From: an uncultured Candidatus Saccharibacteria bacterium
GTDB taxonomy: Bacteria > Patescibacteriota > Dojkabacteria > J137
Assembly: GCA_965230975.1 (NCBI GenBank)
Contig: OZ246402.1
Coordinates: 444,667 to 508,666, forward strand
DNA length: 64,000 nucleotides
Direction of reading: 5' to 3'
The position numbers and the translations under genes were made by a program. The first letter of the stretch is position 1. Each line of letters opens with the position of its first letter. Shown piece after piece: positions 17,181 to 22,521 of this stretch. The notes beneath the pieces were generated by a model, which saw only the letters and a program-made list of their open reading frames with translations, was not told where the DNA came from and did not search any database.

Positions 17181-17197
17181 GTAGAAAATACTATTAC

Positions 17198-17228
17198 AAA
17201 GGCCCCCGATAAATCGGGGGCCTTTTCT
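17198..17228. terminator. Rho-independent terminator, bidirectional between nusA and the convergent gene
   Basis: GGCCCCCGA-TAAA-TCGGGGGCC perfect 9-bp GC stem followed by TTTTCT, with an A-run on the 5' side. Confidence 0.85.
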
Positions 17229-17253
17229 ATGTTTATACCTATGTCAGTTGTTT

Positions 17254-18146: not shown

Positions 18147-18175
18147 TTGTTATCAGCTTAGTGGTTTGGTATAAT
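18147..18175 (+). promoter_or_regulatory. Putative extended -10 promoter for tRNA-Glu (TTGTTA-17 bp-TGgTATAAT)
   Basis: -35 TTGTTA at 18147-18152, TG at 18167-18168, TATAAT at 18170-18175, about 45 bp upstream of the tRNA. Confidence 0.4.
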
Positions 18176-18220: not shown

Positions 18221-18293
18221 TGGCCCTATCGTCTAACGGTTAGGACAGCAGATTCTCAATCTGTAAATCGGAGTTCGATTCTCCGTAGGGTCA
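18221..18293 (+). tRNA. tRNA-Glu (anticodon CUC)
   Basis: Cloverleaf by eye: acceptor TGGCCCT/AGGGTCA, D-arm CGTC...GGAC, anticodon stem GCAGA/TCTGT with loop TTCTCAA, T-arm CGGAG-TTCGATT-CTCCG. No encoded CCA. Confidence 0.8.
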
Positions 18294-18372
18294 TATTTTT
18301 AATAAAATAATTACTACATTGTGATTTTCTCCAAACCTAGAAATTATACCAATCCTAGACGCTCGACATCCA

Positions 18373-18386
18373 TCCTCGTAGGGTCA
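18373..18386 (+). repeat. Direct copy (12 of 14 nt) of the tRNA-Glu 3' acceptor end
   Basis: TCCTCGTAGGGTCA versus the tRNA 3' end TCTCCGTAGGGTCA. Confidence 0.6.
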
Positions 18387-18454
18387 AAAGTTAATTGATT
18401 AAAGAAAAAGTATTTGATAACATTGATTTTATTATTTATTAAATACCTGTATAT

Positions 18455-18766
18455 ATGGAACAACCTGGCTGGATACTAAATGAAAATGAAGATACAAAAT
18501 ATCTTCGAGAAAATAACTCTTCAAATGGTGACACTATGGAATCTCCATATGAAGGATTCCCTGATATTTACAGAACATTACCAGCAGTAAGAATGATATC
18601 TGCGATAGATCAAAAGCCTAAGTATTTTAAATTTCAAGATATTGTAATAGAGGTAACACATGCGGATGAAACTTTTAGTATTGTTAAAGGTGGTCCTAGA
18701 GATGATCTTGCCCCAATATTAGCAGAATTAGCAAATAGAAATGGTTTAAGATTAATAAAAAACTAG
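18455..18766 (+). CDS. Hypothetical protein inside the att-bounded segment
   Basis: 103-aa ORF. Confidence 0.4.
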   Translation: MEQPGWILNENEDTKYLRENNSSNGDTMESPYEGFPDIYRTLPAVRMISAIDQKPKYFKFQDIVIEVTHADETFSIVKGGPRDDLAPILAELANRNGLRLIKN

Positions 18767-18794
18767 ATCTCGAATAGTTTTCTAATGAAATTAA

Positions 18795-18820
18795 GGTTCG
18801 ATATCCTCCTCGTAGGGTCA
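18795..18820 (+). repeat. Direct copy of the tRNA-Glu T-loop plus acceptor 3' half
   Basis: GGTTCGATATCCTCCTCGTAGGGTCA versus the tRNA GAGTTCGATTCTCCGTAGGGTCA. Confidence 0.6.
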
Positions 18821-18896
18821 AATACAACATTCTAATCTTTCTTGACATAATTAGAATTTAAACATAATAATAACTTATATTATTTAATAAGATTTT

Positions 18897-19472
18897 ATGT
18901 CTTTTGATACTCACTTTGACGATTGGAAAAATCCAGAATTAAAAATCCAGGATGCCATAAGAAGCTTGGAGCATATGACTTTTAACGGAACGGTGCTATA
19001 TTTTTGGCAAATGGGCTTAACAGATATAGAGGTAATAGATTTGATAGTTAAAAGTGAGGACACTAAAAATGAAACGGAACTTACTGAACTTTTATCAGAT
19101 ATGAAGTTTGGCGATGAACACTATAAATCTACACTACTAACAGCATACTTTCATGTATTAATTAGAACTCTAAAAAAAGAAGGAAAAACAAATTTAATTC
19201 AAAAAATTAGATCTGCAATATTAGATTCCATTTCTTGGCAAAAAGGGTATATCGGTAGAGCTGAACAGGATACTTTGGTTAACACTGTAGCAAGTTTATT
19301 AAGTGGATTCAAAGACCCTATGTTTAGACAAAGACATTCTGCATTATATTCTAACTTATCTATTTTTCGTGCTGAGAGCCAGTTAGAGGCTTTTACTCAA
19401 TTGTTATTACGTTTAAACAAACAAGAAGTAGAGCAATTACAATTTGAAATTGAAACCAGATTAGAGTTATAG
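18897..19472 (+). CDS. Hypothetical protein
   Basis: 191-aa ORF with no motif. Confidence 0.5.
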   Translation: MSFDTHFDDWKNPELKIQDAIRSLEHMTFNGTVLYFWQMGLTDIEVIDLIVKSEDTKNETELTELLSDMKFGDEHYKSTLLTAYFHVLIRTLKKEGKTNLIQKIRSAILDSISWQKGYIGRAEQDTLVNTVASLLSGFKDPMFRQRHSALYSNLSIFRAESQLEAFTQLLLRLNKQEVEQLQFEIETRLEL

Positions 19473-19504
19473 AGTTAGGAAAAAATAGATGTGCCTATAT
19501 CTGT

Positions 19505-19954
19505 CTAGTGTTGTTTCGACTCCAAAATCTTTTTATTCAGTTTTGATAATCTATCCATTCTAGTTTCTATCTTTTTTGCATCTGTTATCCATCTTACATA
19601 CTCCTTTTTATGAGAATACGCCATTTTTTCAAATAACTCTTTGGCTTTAGGGTCCTTGTTCAATTCTGCTTGCATATCTTCAGGAACTTCTACCTCTCTG
19701 GGTTTATCATCATAAACAACTTCAATTTCCACCTCATCACCAACTTTTAGATTAGCCTTTTCCCTGTTTTCAATACTAACACCAACTGCAGATTTACCAT
19801 CGTAAGTAGTAATAGTATTTCTATAACTATAACCATTAATTGTCACAACAACAGGAACTCGCTTACCTTTATTAAATGATTCTACAACTTCATTTGGAAC
19901 CCAAAATCCTGCTGTATTACCACCACCAGTAAAAATTTTTGCTTTAAATTTCAT
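19505..19954 (-). CDS. DUF1905 / YdeI (OmpD-associated) family protein
   Basis: N-terminal DUF1905-like beta domain (GGGNTAGFWVPNEVVESF...TINGYSY) followed by a YdeI-like helical tail. Confidence 0.55.
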   Translation of the reverse strand: MKFKAKIFTGGGNTAGFWVPNEVVESFNKGKRVPVVVTINGYSYRNTITTYDGKSAVGVSIENREKANLKVGDEVEIEVVYDDKPREVEVPEDMQAELNKDPKAKELFEKMAYSHKKEYVRWITDAKKIETRMDRLSKLNKKILESKQH

Positions 19955-20040
19955 AAAGTTATTATACTAAAATAAAAATCAGAATCATTTAATTTTAAGT
20001 CGATTACAGGTCAATATTCAAAAAATGGTATAATTATGTC

Positions 20041-20340
20041 ATGAAAAGAAATAATTTATACACAATTAATTCAATAACAAATATAAGCATACCAATCCTT
20101 AAAAAATATAATGTAATAAGGGCTGGTATATTTGGTTCGTATGCTAAAGAATCAGCAAAAAAAAATAGCGACATAGATTTTTTGGTAGAAGTACCAAGAG
20201 GTACGGGGCTATTTAAATTTGCAGCATTAAGATCTGAGTTAAAAGAAGCATTGAATAAGGAAGTTGATCTAGTCTCGTATAATTCAATAAAACCTCAAAT
20301 TAGAGACGAAATTATATCAAGTGAACGAAAAATCTTATGA
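20041..20340 (+). CDS. mntA: Nucleotidyltransferase antitoxin MntA (minimal NTase)
   Basis: GIFGSYAKESAKKNSDIDFLVE is the GS...DxD polymerase-beta NTase motif. 4-bp overlap with the downstream HepT gene. Confidence 0.8.
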   Translation: MKRNNLYTINSITNISIPILKKYNVIRAGIFGSYAKESAKKNSDIDFLVEVPRGTGLFKFAALRSELKEALNKEVDLVSYNSIKPQIRDEIISSERKIL

Positions 20341-20669
20341 AGAGAGATTTAAATCTATATTTAAATGATATATTGGAATCGATTGATTTGATTCAGGCGA
20401 GAGTTAGTGGAATGTCAGAGGTAGAGTTTAGAAATGACGAGGAAAAATATGAATCTGTAGTATATAGATTCGCCATTATTGGTGAAGCGGTAAATAAAAT
20501 CCCCAAAGAATATTTAAAAAGATTCCCGAATATAAATTGGTCTGCAATCATATCAATGAGAAATATACTTATACACGAATATCATGAAGCGGATTTAGAT
20601 ATTGTTTGGGATACTATAAAAACTGATTTAACTGATCTGAAGATTGCAATCTCTTCAATGAAAATATAA
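20337..20669 (+). CDS. hepT: HepT (DUF86) HEPN-type RNase toxin
   Basis: Rx4HxY HEPN motif (RNILIHEY). Translationally coupled to mntA (ATGA overlap). Confidence 0.8.
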   Translation: MKRDLNLYLNDILESIDLIQARVSGMSEVEFRNDEEKYESVVYRFAIIGEAVNKIPKEYLKRFPNINWSAIISMRNILIHEYHEADLDIVWDTIKTDLTDLKIAISSMKI

Positions 20670-20670
20670 T

Positions 20671-22521
20671 CTATTCCGAAGCTTGTAGCCACTCCTCACT
20701 TTTCTCTTCTAATTCTTGATTAATCTCTCGTATTTGAAGTGCAATTTTACTCAGTTCTTCCATACTAATATTAATCGTGTTCAACTTTTCGGTTAATTCT
20801 TTCTTTTTTCTTTCTAACAGATTAATTCTCTTTAATAACTCGCGTTCTTTTTCAGAATCTTTAGTAGATTTAACTGGTTGATTAGCTTTTTGAGGTAAAT
20901 CATCTGACCCGGAAATAATACTGCCATCATTAGTATCATCTTCATCTTCCGCAACATCTCTATAGGTTGAATAATTCCCTGGAAAGTCTTTAATAACTGC
21001 ATTTCCTTTAAAGACGAATAGATGATCTACAATCTTATCCATAAAATATCTATCATGAGAAATGATAATCAAACAACCTTTAAACTCTTTTAAAAATTCC
21101 TCTAAAACATTCAAAGTCAAAATATCAAAGTCATTCGTTGGCTCATCCAAAATCAAAAAATTGGGATTCGCCATCAAAATCTTTAACAAGTTAAGCCTTT
21201 TCTTTTCACCACCACTTAATTTAGCAACTAAGTTTTGCTGAACAATTGGAGTAAACAAAAAACGTTCAAGCATTTTTGAAGCAGTAACTTCTGATCCATC
21301 AGAAAGCTTAATAAAGTTAGCAATTGCTTTTACAGAATCAATAACCTTTTCGTTATTATTAAATTCAAGCCCAGATTGAGAATAGTAACCAAAACTTACT
21401 GATTCTCCTTTAACAATTTTGCCAGAATCGGCTTGTTCTTTATCCATTATTAAGTTCAAGAATGTGGTTTTGCCAACACCATTCTTGCCAATAATTCCAA
21501 CTTTTTCACCTTTATTAAAACTATAAGTAAATTTATCTAAAATCTTTTTACTACTAAAAGACTTAGTTAAATTATGAATTTCTAAAATCTTTCCACCCAT
21601 ATATTTTGTTTGCACATCAAGTTTTACCTTTTCTGTTACATTTTTTTGTTTAACACTATTTTTTAATATGTTGTAATCTCTAACTCTTGCGTAACCCTTA
21701 CTTGTTCTACCTCTTGGTTGTTTTTTTACCCATTCAAGTTCTTTTTTTAACAAAGCGTTTGTTCTATCTATATTTGTATTTTCATTTTGCTCACGTTCTG
21801 CTTTCTTTTCTAGAAAATACGAATAGTTACCTTGATATGTAAAGACTTTGCCGTTAACCAATTCTATAATTTCGTTACAAACTCTTTCTAAAAAGTATCT
21901 GTCATGAGTAACCATTAAAAGGGTAATATCGTTTTCTTGCAAATATTCTTCAAGCCAATCAATCATTTCTAAGTCTAGATGGTTCGTAGGTTCATCCATT
22001 ACAAGAAGGTCTGGTGTGTCTATTAATATTTTTGCTAAGGCAACTCTTTTCTTTTGCCCTCCCGAAAATGTGGAGATTTTTTCGTTTAAGTTGTGCAGGT
22101 TTAAGTTTGTTAATACCTCTTTGATTCTTTCTTCGTATTCCCATGCGTTGGTGTTTGTCATTGCTTCAAAGGCTTCTTGCATTTTATCAGAGTCCTCGGG
22201 GGTTAATAGGCTTTGTTCGTATAGTTTTACGGCTTTGATTATTGGTGAATCACTAGAAAAAATCTCTTGATCTACTGTTTTGTTCAAATCAAGTTGTGGT
22301 TCTTGTTCTAAGAATGCTGTTTTTACCCCTTTTTGTTTTGTTATTCTGCCACTGTCGTATGTTTCTGTTCCGGCTAATATTTTTAGTAGGGTAGATTTAC
22401 CTGTTCCGTTTTGAGCGACTAGTGCAATTTTGTCACCTTTATCTACAGAAAAAGAGATATTATTTAAAATAACTCTATCGTTAAAGGTTTTTATTAGGTT
22501 TTCTACTAAAATGTAACTCAT
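20671..22521 (-). CDS. ABC-F family ATPase (tandem ABC domains, Uup/EttA-like translation factor) with a C-terminal coiled coil
   Basis: Two Walker A motifs (AQNGTGKST and GKNGVGKTT), two LSGG signatures, no TM domains, and a coiled-coil tail. Confidence 0.9.
   Translation of the reverse strand: MSYILVENLIKTFNDRVILNNISFSVDKGDKIALVAQNGTGKSTLLKILAGTETYDSGRITKQKGVKTAFLEQEPQLDLNKTVDQEIFSSDSPIIKAVKLYEQSLLTPEDSDKMQEAFEAMTNTNAWEYEERIKEVLTNLNLHNLNEKISTFSGGQKKRVALAKILIDTPDLLVMDEPTNHLDLEMIDWLEEYLQENDITLLMVTHDRYFLERVCNEIIELVNGKVFTYQGNYSYFLEKKAEREQNENTNIDRTNALLKKELEWVKKQPRGRTSKGYARVRDYNILKNSVKQKNVTEKVKLDVQTKYMGGKILEIHNLTKSFSSKKILDKFTYSFNKGEKVGIIGKNGVGKTTFLNLIMDKEQADSGKIVKGESVSFGYYSQSGLEFNNNEKVIDSVKAIANFIKLSDGSEVTASKMLERFLFTPIVQQNLVAKLSGGEKKRLNLLKILMANPNFLILDEPTNDFDILTLNVLEEFLKEFKGCLIIISHDRYFMDKIVDHLFVFKGNAVIKDFPGNYSTYRDVAEDEDDTNDGSIISGSDDLPQKANQPVKSTKDSEKERELLKRINLLERKKKELTEKLNTINISMEELSKIALQIREINQELEEKSEEWLQASE

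Follow-up and report, generated by a model that had tools for sequence, protein, structure and literature searches.

The tRNA-Glu(CUC) locus and its partial copies

We analyzed a stretch of 64,000 nucleotides from contig OZ246402.1 (hereafter the window), centering on the tRNA-Glu(CUC) gene and the variable segment that follows it. The host was placed by its NusA homologues in Candidatus Dojkabacteria, a lineage of the Candidate Phyla Radiation (CPR), bacteria with genomes of ~1 Mb and few recognizable mobile elements in which, to our knowledge, little is known about gene gain and loss. The variable segment is flanked on the left by NusA and a gene for a 275-aa hypothetical protein, and on the right by an ABC-F ATPase gene (Table 1). 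Two partial copies of the tRNA 3′ end, here termed scars c2 and c3, lie downstream of the tRNA, and beyond them follow 1.85 kb of accessory DNA that end in a 0.73-kb MntA-HepT toxin-antitoxin module.

Table 1. Features at the tRNA-Glu(CUC) locus, in positions of the window (ORF, open reading frame; L030, L051, L053 and L054, contigs of related strains described in the text)
Feature	Position	Strand	Basis or remark
Promoter-like site TTGTTA-17-TATAAT with upstream TG, before the tRNA	18147-18175	+	Consensus scan; pattern match only
tRNA-Glu(CUC), intact	18222-18293	+	ARAGORN; Rfam 63 bits
Spacer from tRNA end to c2, 67 nt, ORF-free	18294-18360	+	Same as the flank after scar r0 in L053/L054
Scar c2, GCTCGACAT-CCATCCT-CGTAGGGTCA-AA	18361-18388	+	nhmmer E 2e-9
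103-aa ORFan, sole ORF between c2 and c3	18455-18766	+	ORF list
Scar c3, GGTTCGATAT-CCTCCT-CGTAGGGTCA-AA	18795-18822	+	nhmmer E 1.6e-7
Promoter-like site TTGACA-18-AATAAT (11/12), best of the region, before the 191-aa ORF	18842-18871	+	Pattern match only
191-aa ORFan, island cargo outside the att-bounded part	18897-19472	+	Missing from L030
YdeI-like gene, DUF1905 + OmdA, island cargo	19505-19954	-	Pfam E 3.5e-14, 2.1e-18
Strain-variable toxin-antitoxin module	19956-20685	+	blastn breakpoints 19955 and 20686 (L051)
MntA-type minimal nucleotidyltransferase (antitoxin), 99 aa	20041-20340	+	Polbeta 4.9e-16, NTP_transf_2 2.8e-14, PADLOC PDC-S09 1.2e-22
HepT-type HEPN RNase (toxin), 110 aa	20337-20669	+	HepT-like 4.4e-26
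ABC-F ATPase, conserved right flank of the variable segment, convergent	20671-22521	-	Pfam

ARAGORN and Rfam agreed on the position of the tRNA gene, which is intact as stated in a preliminary description of the locus made from the sequence alone; the terminal CCA is not encoded. Its 3′ end, the proximal attachment site, consists of the T loop GTTCGA, 5 nt and the ten-base core CGTAGGGTCA, which spans two bases at the end of the T stem, the 3′ strand of the acceptor stem and the discriminator base. The core occurs exactly three times in the 64 kb, always on the plus strand: at 18284 within the tRNA, at 18377 in c2 and at 18811 in c3. The expectation by chance in 64 kb was ~0.67, even with one mismatch permitted, and in shuffled sequences a single 10-mer match appeared within the next 3 kb in ~2%. 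The other two tRNAs of the window have no comparable 3′-end copies, and a profile search detected no additional degenerate scars in the window or in the related contigs L017 and L030.

The two scars align with each other with one 1-nt indel, GCTCGACATCCATCCTCGTAGGGTCAAA (from 18361) against GTTCGATATCC-TCCTCGTAGGGTCAAA (from 18796). They are identical over the 16 nt of TCCTCGTAGGGTCAAA, where the tRNA differs (TCCTCG… versus TCTCCG…), and are closer to each other than either is to the tRNA. The distance from GTTCGA to the core is 9-10 nt in c2 and c3 and 5 nt in the tRNA; therefore, the scars are not simple duplicates of the resident tRNA end. For the first copy, which the preliminary description had put at 18373-18386, both the coordinates and the identity (12/14) stood, but its length of 14 nt did not, the copy really extending over ~26 nt from 18361. 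The second copy (18795-18820, 26 nt, T loop plus acceptor strand) was recovered as described. Both thus qualify as partial tRNA 3′-end copies in strand and exact core, but their arms are of an element type and not displaced ends of the host tRNA. As had also been described, the scar-bounded segments hold only the 103-aa ORF and no integrase.

Breakpoints, strain differences and the scar family

Comparison with relatives revealed a replaceable segment with breakpoints exactly at the tRNA end and at ABC-F. The closest relative with both flanks was L030, whose ABC-F protein is 94% identical in amino acid sequence and whose gene order is the homologue of the 275-aa gene, tRNA-Glu, 864 nt with two unrelated ORFs, and ABC-F. 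The blastn similarity between L030 and the window ended at 18296, the tRNA 3′ end, and restarted at 20686, the ABC-F stop; more generally, homology with L030, L051 and L031 restarted at 20686 or within the ABC-F gene. A second pair, L014 and L017, shared ~80% DNA identity through NusA and the tRNA; their similarity broke at the tRNA end and returned just beyond a scar in L014, the 2.3 kb between the tRNA and this scar being wholly different in L017, which is scarless. Synteny upstream (MraZ … LemA, GT4, NusA) was kept in all relatives, and synteny downstream was lost at tRNA-Glu in every one of them. A scan of genome contigs with NusA as the single query returned distant phyla only. As a separate observation, a family of ~97-aa proteins with no Pfam match lies just 3′ of tRNA-Glu in two distant Dojkabacteria with differing neighbors (L030:2556-2852, minus strand, and L017:7660-7953; 43% identity, E 2e-19); it is either an ancestral neighbor lost in the window strain or recurrent cargo.

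Strain-level differences were then apparent among contigs with an identical 103-aa ORF, which were recovered from five samples. From 18281 onward, L053 and L054 were 99.5-100% identical to the window. Left of this position they lack the tRNA and read …GGTGTTCGACATTTCGCTCCGTAGGGTCA, before which an unrelated ORF ends, with the junction …AATAAGGTGTTCGACATTTCGCTCCGTAGGGTCA|TATTTTTAATAAAAT…. The sequence is a third scar, r0, which ends a segment X and is fused exactly to the tRNA-proximal flank of the window; a 13-nt direct repeat is common to r0 and the tRNA end, and r0 has the architecture of c2 and c3. These strains therefore carry extra DNA, segment X, between the tRNA and that flank, as a polymorphic insertion at the tRNA end or, equivalently, through precise excision in the window strain. 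Because r0 joins that flank precisely at the core of the tRNA end, insertion at this tRNA is site-specific, and strains are polymorphic for it to this day. We regard L053 and L054 as direct evidence for successive, site-specific events, and as the strongest evidence that we have. With three scars, one of them polymorphic, the earlier proposal of tandem or successive integration into tRNA-Glu was supported, and the breakpoints in L030, L014/L017 and L053/L054 likewise favor an integration reading.

Further heterogeneity was found at both ends of the segment. Contig L051 matched the window at 97.7% identity over 18266-19955 and at 94% identity to the right of 20686; between these parts, the stretch that encodes MntA-HepT in the window (19956-20685) was replaced by 826 nt encoding a 236-aa ORFan. 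We conclude that MntA-HepT is an independently exchangeable toxin-antitoxin module. At the other end, the contigs L013, L016, L041 and L051 all terminate inside tRNA-Glu, as expected for a population heterogeneous at that point.

Sequences almost identical to c2 were also found 3′ of tRNA-Glu(CUC) in three other genomes, namely L014 (GGTTCGACATCCGTCCCCGTAGGGTCAAAA), L015 (AGTTCGACATCCATCATCGTAGGGTCAAAA) and, as a degenerate version, L019. Counting the window strain and its sisters (c2/c3 and r0) as one genome, the scars of all four genomes are mutually homologous and follow a common pattern, GTTCGAYAT-N6-8-CGTAGGGTCA, in which the T-loop-like motif lies ~5 nt farther from the core than in the tRNA. 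The ~26-nt scar recurs with 1-2 mismatches in the unrelated contigs L014 and L015 (chance expectation 0.00), and a scar profile recovered the scars at E 1e-5 to 1e-9 and otherwise only tRNAs in ~330 kb searched. The sequence shared by scars and tRNA is short (9-17 nt), with the fragments identical to the resident tRNA end over 9-13 nt only. In sequence, the scars are closer to each other than to the tRNAs behind which they lie; the T stems of those tRNAs have undergone compensatory substitutions (CGGAG/CTCCG versus CCGGG/CCCGG). The cargo between tRNA and scar differs in each case: the 103-aa ORFan in the window, DUF4238 and a 244-aa ORF in L014, a 233-aa ORF in L015, and a 290-aa and a kinase-like ORF in L019. 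Within the close pairs L014 and L017, and window and L030, a scar is present in one member and missing from the other. Folding of the scars gave no significant structure (z-scores -0.1 to -1.5), and Rfam holds no family for them; a structured-RNA identity was rejected on these grounds. Because the scars are more like one another than like the tRNAs, are patchy in close pairs and do not fold, the pattern fits sequence that arrives with the inserted DNA and not a conserved host element.

The latter explanation, in which the partial copies are a conserved structured RNA or a regulatory or processing signal of the host, nevertheless accounts for some of these observations. A block of ~30 nt is kept across genomes in which NusA is only 66-70% identical and the flanks are unalignable, and a plus-strand gene begins 63-98 nt downstream in 4/5 cases. 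Against it stand the missing fold and Rfam match, the lack of a 5′ acceptor strand to pair with, the patchy distribution between close relatives, a copy number of one to three per strain with r0 polymorphic, and downstream genes that are mutually unrelated. We therefore hold a host element to be highly improbable. The recurrence of fragments in relatives, which the preliminary description had named as a possible objection to integration if it came without inserted DNA or with a structured RNA, agrees with that objection only superficially: the fragments are always accompanied by different inserted DNA, vary among close relatives and show no RNA structure.

Three other candidate relationships were dropped. 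One would have connected HepT, which cleaves tRNA 3′ ends in some systems, with the tRNA-like scars; however, relatives that have scars can lack HepT-MntA, and the pair is also missing from L051, where the scars are kept. The ORFs of 244 aa in L014 and L017 are not homologues, the same length being coincidental, and the 233-aa ORF of L015 is not a homologue of the 275-aa gene of the window. This L015 ORF (11481-12182, minus strand) has no Pfam match and contains an HExxH motif (ISHELTHF); it may encode a metalloprotease like those of the regulation modules of phages and integrative and conjugative elements (ICEs).

Proposed insertion mechanism and recombinase class

Taken together, it is likely that DNA inserts site-specifically and repeatedly at one hotspot in this Dojkabacteria lineage, the 3′ end of tRNA-Glu(CUC), with the scars being junctions of decayed elements and the recombinase a phage-type large serine recombinase. 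An incoming element would recombine with the tRNA gene over its terminal ~10-13 nt (…C(T)CCGTAGGGTCA), so that the tRNA would be kept intact at the proximal junction and the distal junction would be a hybrid of the element arm (GTTCGAYAT + 6-8 nt), the shared core and the former tRNA flank. Every new insertion would push the older ones away from the tRNA. The tRNA 3′ end, where the homology of L030, L014/L017 and L053 breaks, then represents attL, or the left half of attB; c2 is a putative attR-type junction of element-type arm and shared core, and c3 a putative older one. We read the window as holding two decayed insertions, 18294-18388 (ORF-free) and 18389-18822 (one ORFan), of which only the distal junctions survive. 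Since c2 and c3 enclose only the 67-nt spacer and one ORFan, the elements themselves, including the recombinase, would have been deleted. The spacer is what remains of the insertion closest to the tRNA in the window strain, and the 191-aa ORFan, YdeI and MntA-HepT would be accessory DNA turning over at the same hotspot.

With respect to the recombinase, integrase-bearing elements do exist at tRNA-Glu(CUC), and they are of the serine type. By scanning viral contigs for the tRNA 3′ end, we found L041 (IMGVR_UViG_3300028241_004056), a 53-kb viral contig with 31% GC that begins inside the 3′ half of a Dojkabacteria-type tRNA-Glu(CUC), one mismatch from the L030 tRNA; the other matches were mostly tRNA arrays of jumbo phages, and L041 alone was relevant. 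Next to the tRNA it encodes, on the minus strand, a 513-aa large serine recombinase with Resolvase, Recombinase and Zn_ribbon_recom domains, followed by a phage Rep O protein. In the metagenome contig L022, the C-terminus of a homologous recombinase (E 8e-6) converges on the tRNA-Glu(CUC) of that contig. These two cases answer the earlier suggestion to look in related genomes for an element at this tRNA that still has its integrase.

The geometry of the scars points in the same direction. Rutherford et al. (PMC3783163) described that the attB and attP half-sites of serine integrases share their inner region and that the zinc-ribbon-domain motif occupies positions 11-19 in attB and 16-24 in attP, a shift of 5 bp. 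Counted outward from the last two bases of the tRNA, GTTCGATTC of the tRNA lies at about positions 11-19, and GTTCGACAT of the scars, with the same count from the core, at about 16-24, the inner CGTAGGGT being common to both. The distance from GTTCGA to CGTAGGGTCA is 5 nt in the tRNA, 10 nt in c2, r0, L014 and L015, and 9 nt in c3. At the level of sequence, this 5-bp displacement matches the attP/attB half-site geometry. The T-loop GTTCGA of the tRNA would accordingly serve as the zinc-ribbon-domain motif in one half of attB, and the attP half-site of the element would have the same motif 5 bp farther out. Because recombinases adjoin the tRNA in L041 and L022 and the shift matches the half-site geometry, the scars are best explained as attR-type junctions of decayed serine-integrase elements.

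The recombinase genes of L041 and L022 showed two further peculiarities. In both (L041:1-130 and L022:3534-3620), the ORF stays open through the complement of the tRNA and stops at a TGA opposite the anticodon loop. The last 12 recombinase codons (…MTLPGIEPGLTD) are thus tRNA-encoded, and the recombinase C-terminus would therefore change on excision. In addition, L041:94-120, in the 3′ end of the recombinase gene, on the same strand and 59 nt past the tRNA end, reads GGTGTTCGATATTGAATTCCGT, which matches scar r0 (GGTGTTCGACATTTCGCTCCGT) at 17/22 positions with an offset like the 67 nt of c2; perhaps the element carries its own copy of the arm motif there.

Several results weigh against a hotspot of decayed serine-integrase elements. 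No recombinase was found in any scar-bearing locus (Pfam lists and crude motif scans), and none in 18294-20670 of the window (ORFs, Pfam) or in the rest of its 64 kb (crude motif scan). No scar could be tied directly to the recombinase-bearing element of L041 or L022, and pattern scans of IMG/VR and the JGI metagenomes yielded neither a free attP with the scar arm nor further genuine scars. In the right half-sites, the motif that should recur in inverted orientation is weak or missing: TTCTAA(C) occurs at +9 to +16 in c3, L014 and L015, that is, in 3/6 scars, and is missing in c2, r0 and L019. GC content showed no shift across the island, and the 191-aa/YdeI/MntA-HepT part, the right two-thirds of the island, is variable without an att boundary. 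The six segments bounded by scars measure only 0.09-2.3 kb, a small size that random prophage decay does not obviously predict. Finally, attL and attR are not the usual targets of serine integrases, and tandem scars thus require that the tRNA half together with a loose, A/T-rich right half acts again as attB. Related searches were also negative: relatives of the L041 recombinase in viral contigs were limited to L041 itself, tblastn of the recombinase against the window revealed no pseudogene remnant, a 16-mer scan of viral contigs gave nine chance matches, none near a tRNA, and no P′ motif was seen beside the tRNAs.

The main competitor for the recombinase class is a tyrosine integrase acting at the end of the acceptor stem, in which case the displaced GTTCGA would be the vestige of a longer tRNA-like block with a 4-5-nt insertion (ATCC duplicated). 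Tandem scars such as c2, c3 and r0 are routine for tyrosine systems, where hybrid sites keep the core (tycheposon islands; Islander, PMC4383910). The 13-17-nt direct repeats in r0 and L014 exceed what a serine integrase needs, and ATCCATCC in c2 resembles a slippage duplication. However, no tyrosine recombinase was found in any of ~20 loci, also when HxLRH-type recombinases were looked for, and the only recombinases found adjoining tRNA-Glu are of the serine type. The offset of +5 is kept in five scars with differing intervening bases, suggesting a spacing constraint and not one inherited indel. The common core is 5-8 bp for serine integrases and typically 25-76 bp for tRNA-targeting tyrosine integrases (PMC8092301); no identity block of the latter length was present, and the 9-17-nt cores observed here are much shorter and nearer the serine range. 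A serine integrase is therefore more likely, and we consider the tyrosine explanation unlikely, though not negligible.

We also considered that the segments are not decayed prophages and are instead non-autonomous cassettes of zero to two ORFs with a distal site, inserted in trans into an integron-like, tRNA-anchored array. The scar-bounded segments are all short (about 0.09, 0.43, 0.75, 1.5 and 2.3 kb) and devoid of a recombinase, new DNA enters next to the tRNA (r0) as cassettes do at attI, and the 97/98-aa family recurs at the hotspot in L030 and L017 with different neighbors. In contrast, no cassette recurred in a second context or order, no integrase is adjacent, the scars form no attC-like hairpin, and the ORFs have promoter-like sites of their own. 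Intact recombinase-bearing elements also occur at tRNA-Glu, so decay suffices. Such cassettes are quite improbable on this evidence. A bolder version, to which we likewise give little credence, joins the two ideas in a cassette-like gene-capture array anchored at tRNA-Glu(CUC), where a large serine recombinase acting in trans would insert segments of zero to two genes, each ending in GTTCGAYAT-N6-8-CGTAGGGTCA (~26 nt). The enzyme would read the T loop of the tRNA as the zinc-ribbon motif of attB and tolerate almost any A/T-rich right half-site, so that hybrid sites would not block re-use. If true, the array would be a serine-recombinase analogue of the integron in ultra-small genomes.

Cargo, other tRNA-Glu(CUC) loci and known systems

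Among the genes of the variable segment, the 103-aa ORF had no match in Pfam, PHROG or PADLOC and matched only itself among 5.8 billion proteins; in the sister-strain contigs it is present at 97.7-100% identity. The 191-aa ORF likewise had no Pfam match and found only itself among 1.84 billion representatives. The YdeI-like gene is missing from L030 and was found in L051 and L052. Pfam agreed with the YdeI/DUF1905, MntA and HepT assignments of the preliminary description, and the coupling of MntA and HepT was verified as a 4-nt overlap, ATGA, at 20337-20340. The translations contain the expected motifs, GS-x10-DxD in MntA (GSYAKESAKKNSDID) and Rx4H in HepT (RNILIH). An extended -10 element, TGGTATAAT (20026-20043), ends 6 nt before the MntA ATG, and the MntA-HepT mRNA is for this reason probably leaderless; the same motif precedes tRNA-Glu at 18167-18175.

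The accessory island at the tRNA is variable in relatives as proposed, but the att-like copies bound only 18294-18820, and MntA-HepT was swapped on its own in L051. A search for further core copies downstream yielded none beyond the three exact ones. A compositional shift across the region, which had been suggested as a check, was not found, GC being flat at ~30% (~0.26-0.34 inside and outside the island).

Other tRNA-Glu(CUC) genes showed different kinds of fragments and neighbors. In the JGI metagenome contigs L021 (5493-5610), L023 (3709-3950) and L026 (7990-8110, minus strand), the local tRNA-Glu(CUC) has its own 3′ end repeated exactly over 18-22 nt; the duplicate begins 96-105 nt after the tRNA, with a terminator hairpin between. 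The duplicates of L021 and L026 share the derived ACGAAGTGATT, the L026 copy is longer and resembles a decayed tRNA that has kept its D loop and T arm and lost the anticodon arm, and L023 has two tandem units of ~55 nt each. These duplicates constitute a different scar family, with long exact repeats, at the same tRNA. In L015 (11290-11410), a tRNA-Glu 5′ fragment (GGCCCTATCGTC, followed by AGATTCT and TAACGGT pieces) immediately follows the NusA terminator, ~115 nt upstream of the intact tRNA, which thus stands between a 5′ pseudo-fragment and a 3′ scar. Small P-loop kinases of the PRK/AAA_18 type (L019:12520-13071, L021:5657-6211 and L018:13832-14350) and PemK/MazF toxins (L018:13462-13773 and L020:1468-1785) were encoded 0.1-2.5 kb 3′ of tRNA-Glu(CUC) in different lineages, and their recurrence suggests shared hotspot cargo.

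Elsewhere in the window, an 820-aa ORF from ~26989 onward (L012:20940-21131, minus strand) combines Pyr_redox_2/Pyr_redox_dim with Rhodanese, TusA and DrsE domains and is a predicted large sulfur-relay/disulfide-reductase fusion. Between the convergent NusA and 275-aa genes, a strong GC-rich hairpin with a T run (AAAGGCCCCCGATAAATCGGGGGCCTTTT, 17195-17232) looks like a bidirectional terminator; Rfam leader-family matches at this place were weak and were discarded as spurious.

These results describe a 2.4-kb swappable accessory block, of the ordinary genomic-island kind and unusually well documented. The locus provides a strain-resolved example of one tRNA end as a recurrent entry point for DNA in a CPR bacterium, in which scars permit the counting of successive events and modules such as HepT-MntA are swapped between near-identical strains. 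If the serine-integrase interpretation is true, the locus would also offer a naturally occurring serine integrase that inserts at the 3′ end of a tRNA and leaves the tRNA intact, with an attB largely set by the universal T loop and of possible interest for integrase tools. The locus is of interest mainly because its host belongs to the CPR, because evidence of activity is available at strain resolution and because a serine integrase may target a tRNA.

Compared with known systems, the HepT-MntA pair resembles HEPN-MNT type VII pairs in the upstream, overlapping MNT gene, the GS-x10-DxD and Rx4H motifs, the small size of both proteins (99 and 110 aa) and its location in variable DNA, and from its sequence appears in no way unusual. 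An integron cassette array differs from the locus, which has no adjacent intI/attI and no attC-like folding of the scars. Streptococcal cis-mobilizable elements (CIMEs) and tandem accretion (review: PMC5704250) are similar in that att-flanked segments without recombination or transfer genes stand in tandem at a primary attachment site; CIMEs, however, derive from ICEs or integrative and mobilizable elements with tyrosine or DDE recombinases, and no conjugation or mobilization genes or helper element were seen at our locus. With serine-integrase att sites (PMC3783163), the scars share the short core, the common inner half-site, the outer motif offset by 5 bp and, in L041 and L022, an integrase gene next to the junction. 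They differ in having a tRNA 3′ end as the target, given that characterized serine integrases mostly insert within ORFs (PMC8092301), in lacking an evident right half-site symmetry, and in the tandem hybrid sites, which are unexpected from canonical attP x attB directionality.

Islander defines tRNA-linked islands by a regenerated tRNA and a displaced 3′ fragment (PMC4383910). Like these, the locus has an intact tRNA at one end, partial 3′ copies on the same strand distally, and intervening DNA that varies between relatives with a breakpoint at the tRNA end. Unlike them, it has no integrase and no compositional shift, its fragments carry ~5 extra nt and share only 9-13 nt with the tRNA, and repeats bound no more than the first 0.5 kb of its 2.4-kb variable segment. 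The closest described parallel is the tRNA-anchored islands of Prochlorococcus, in which successive tRNA integrations of tycheposons push older, degenerating elements and partial tRNAs inward (bioRxiv 10.1101/2020.12.28.424599). Tycheposons carry tyrosine recombinases and replication modules, whereas only large serine recombinases were seen at tRNA-Glu, and here the host belongs to the CPR and the surviving segments are much smaller. In both, a streamlined genome holds remnants scattered behind a tRNA, and strains differ within a population. Our locus is a well-supported instance of a familiar phenomenon.

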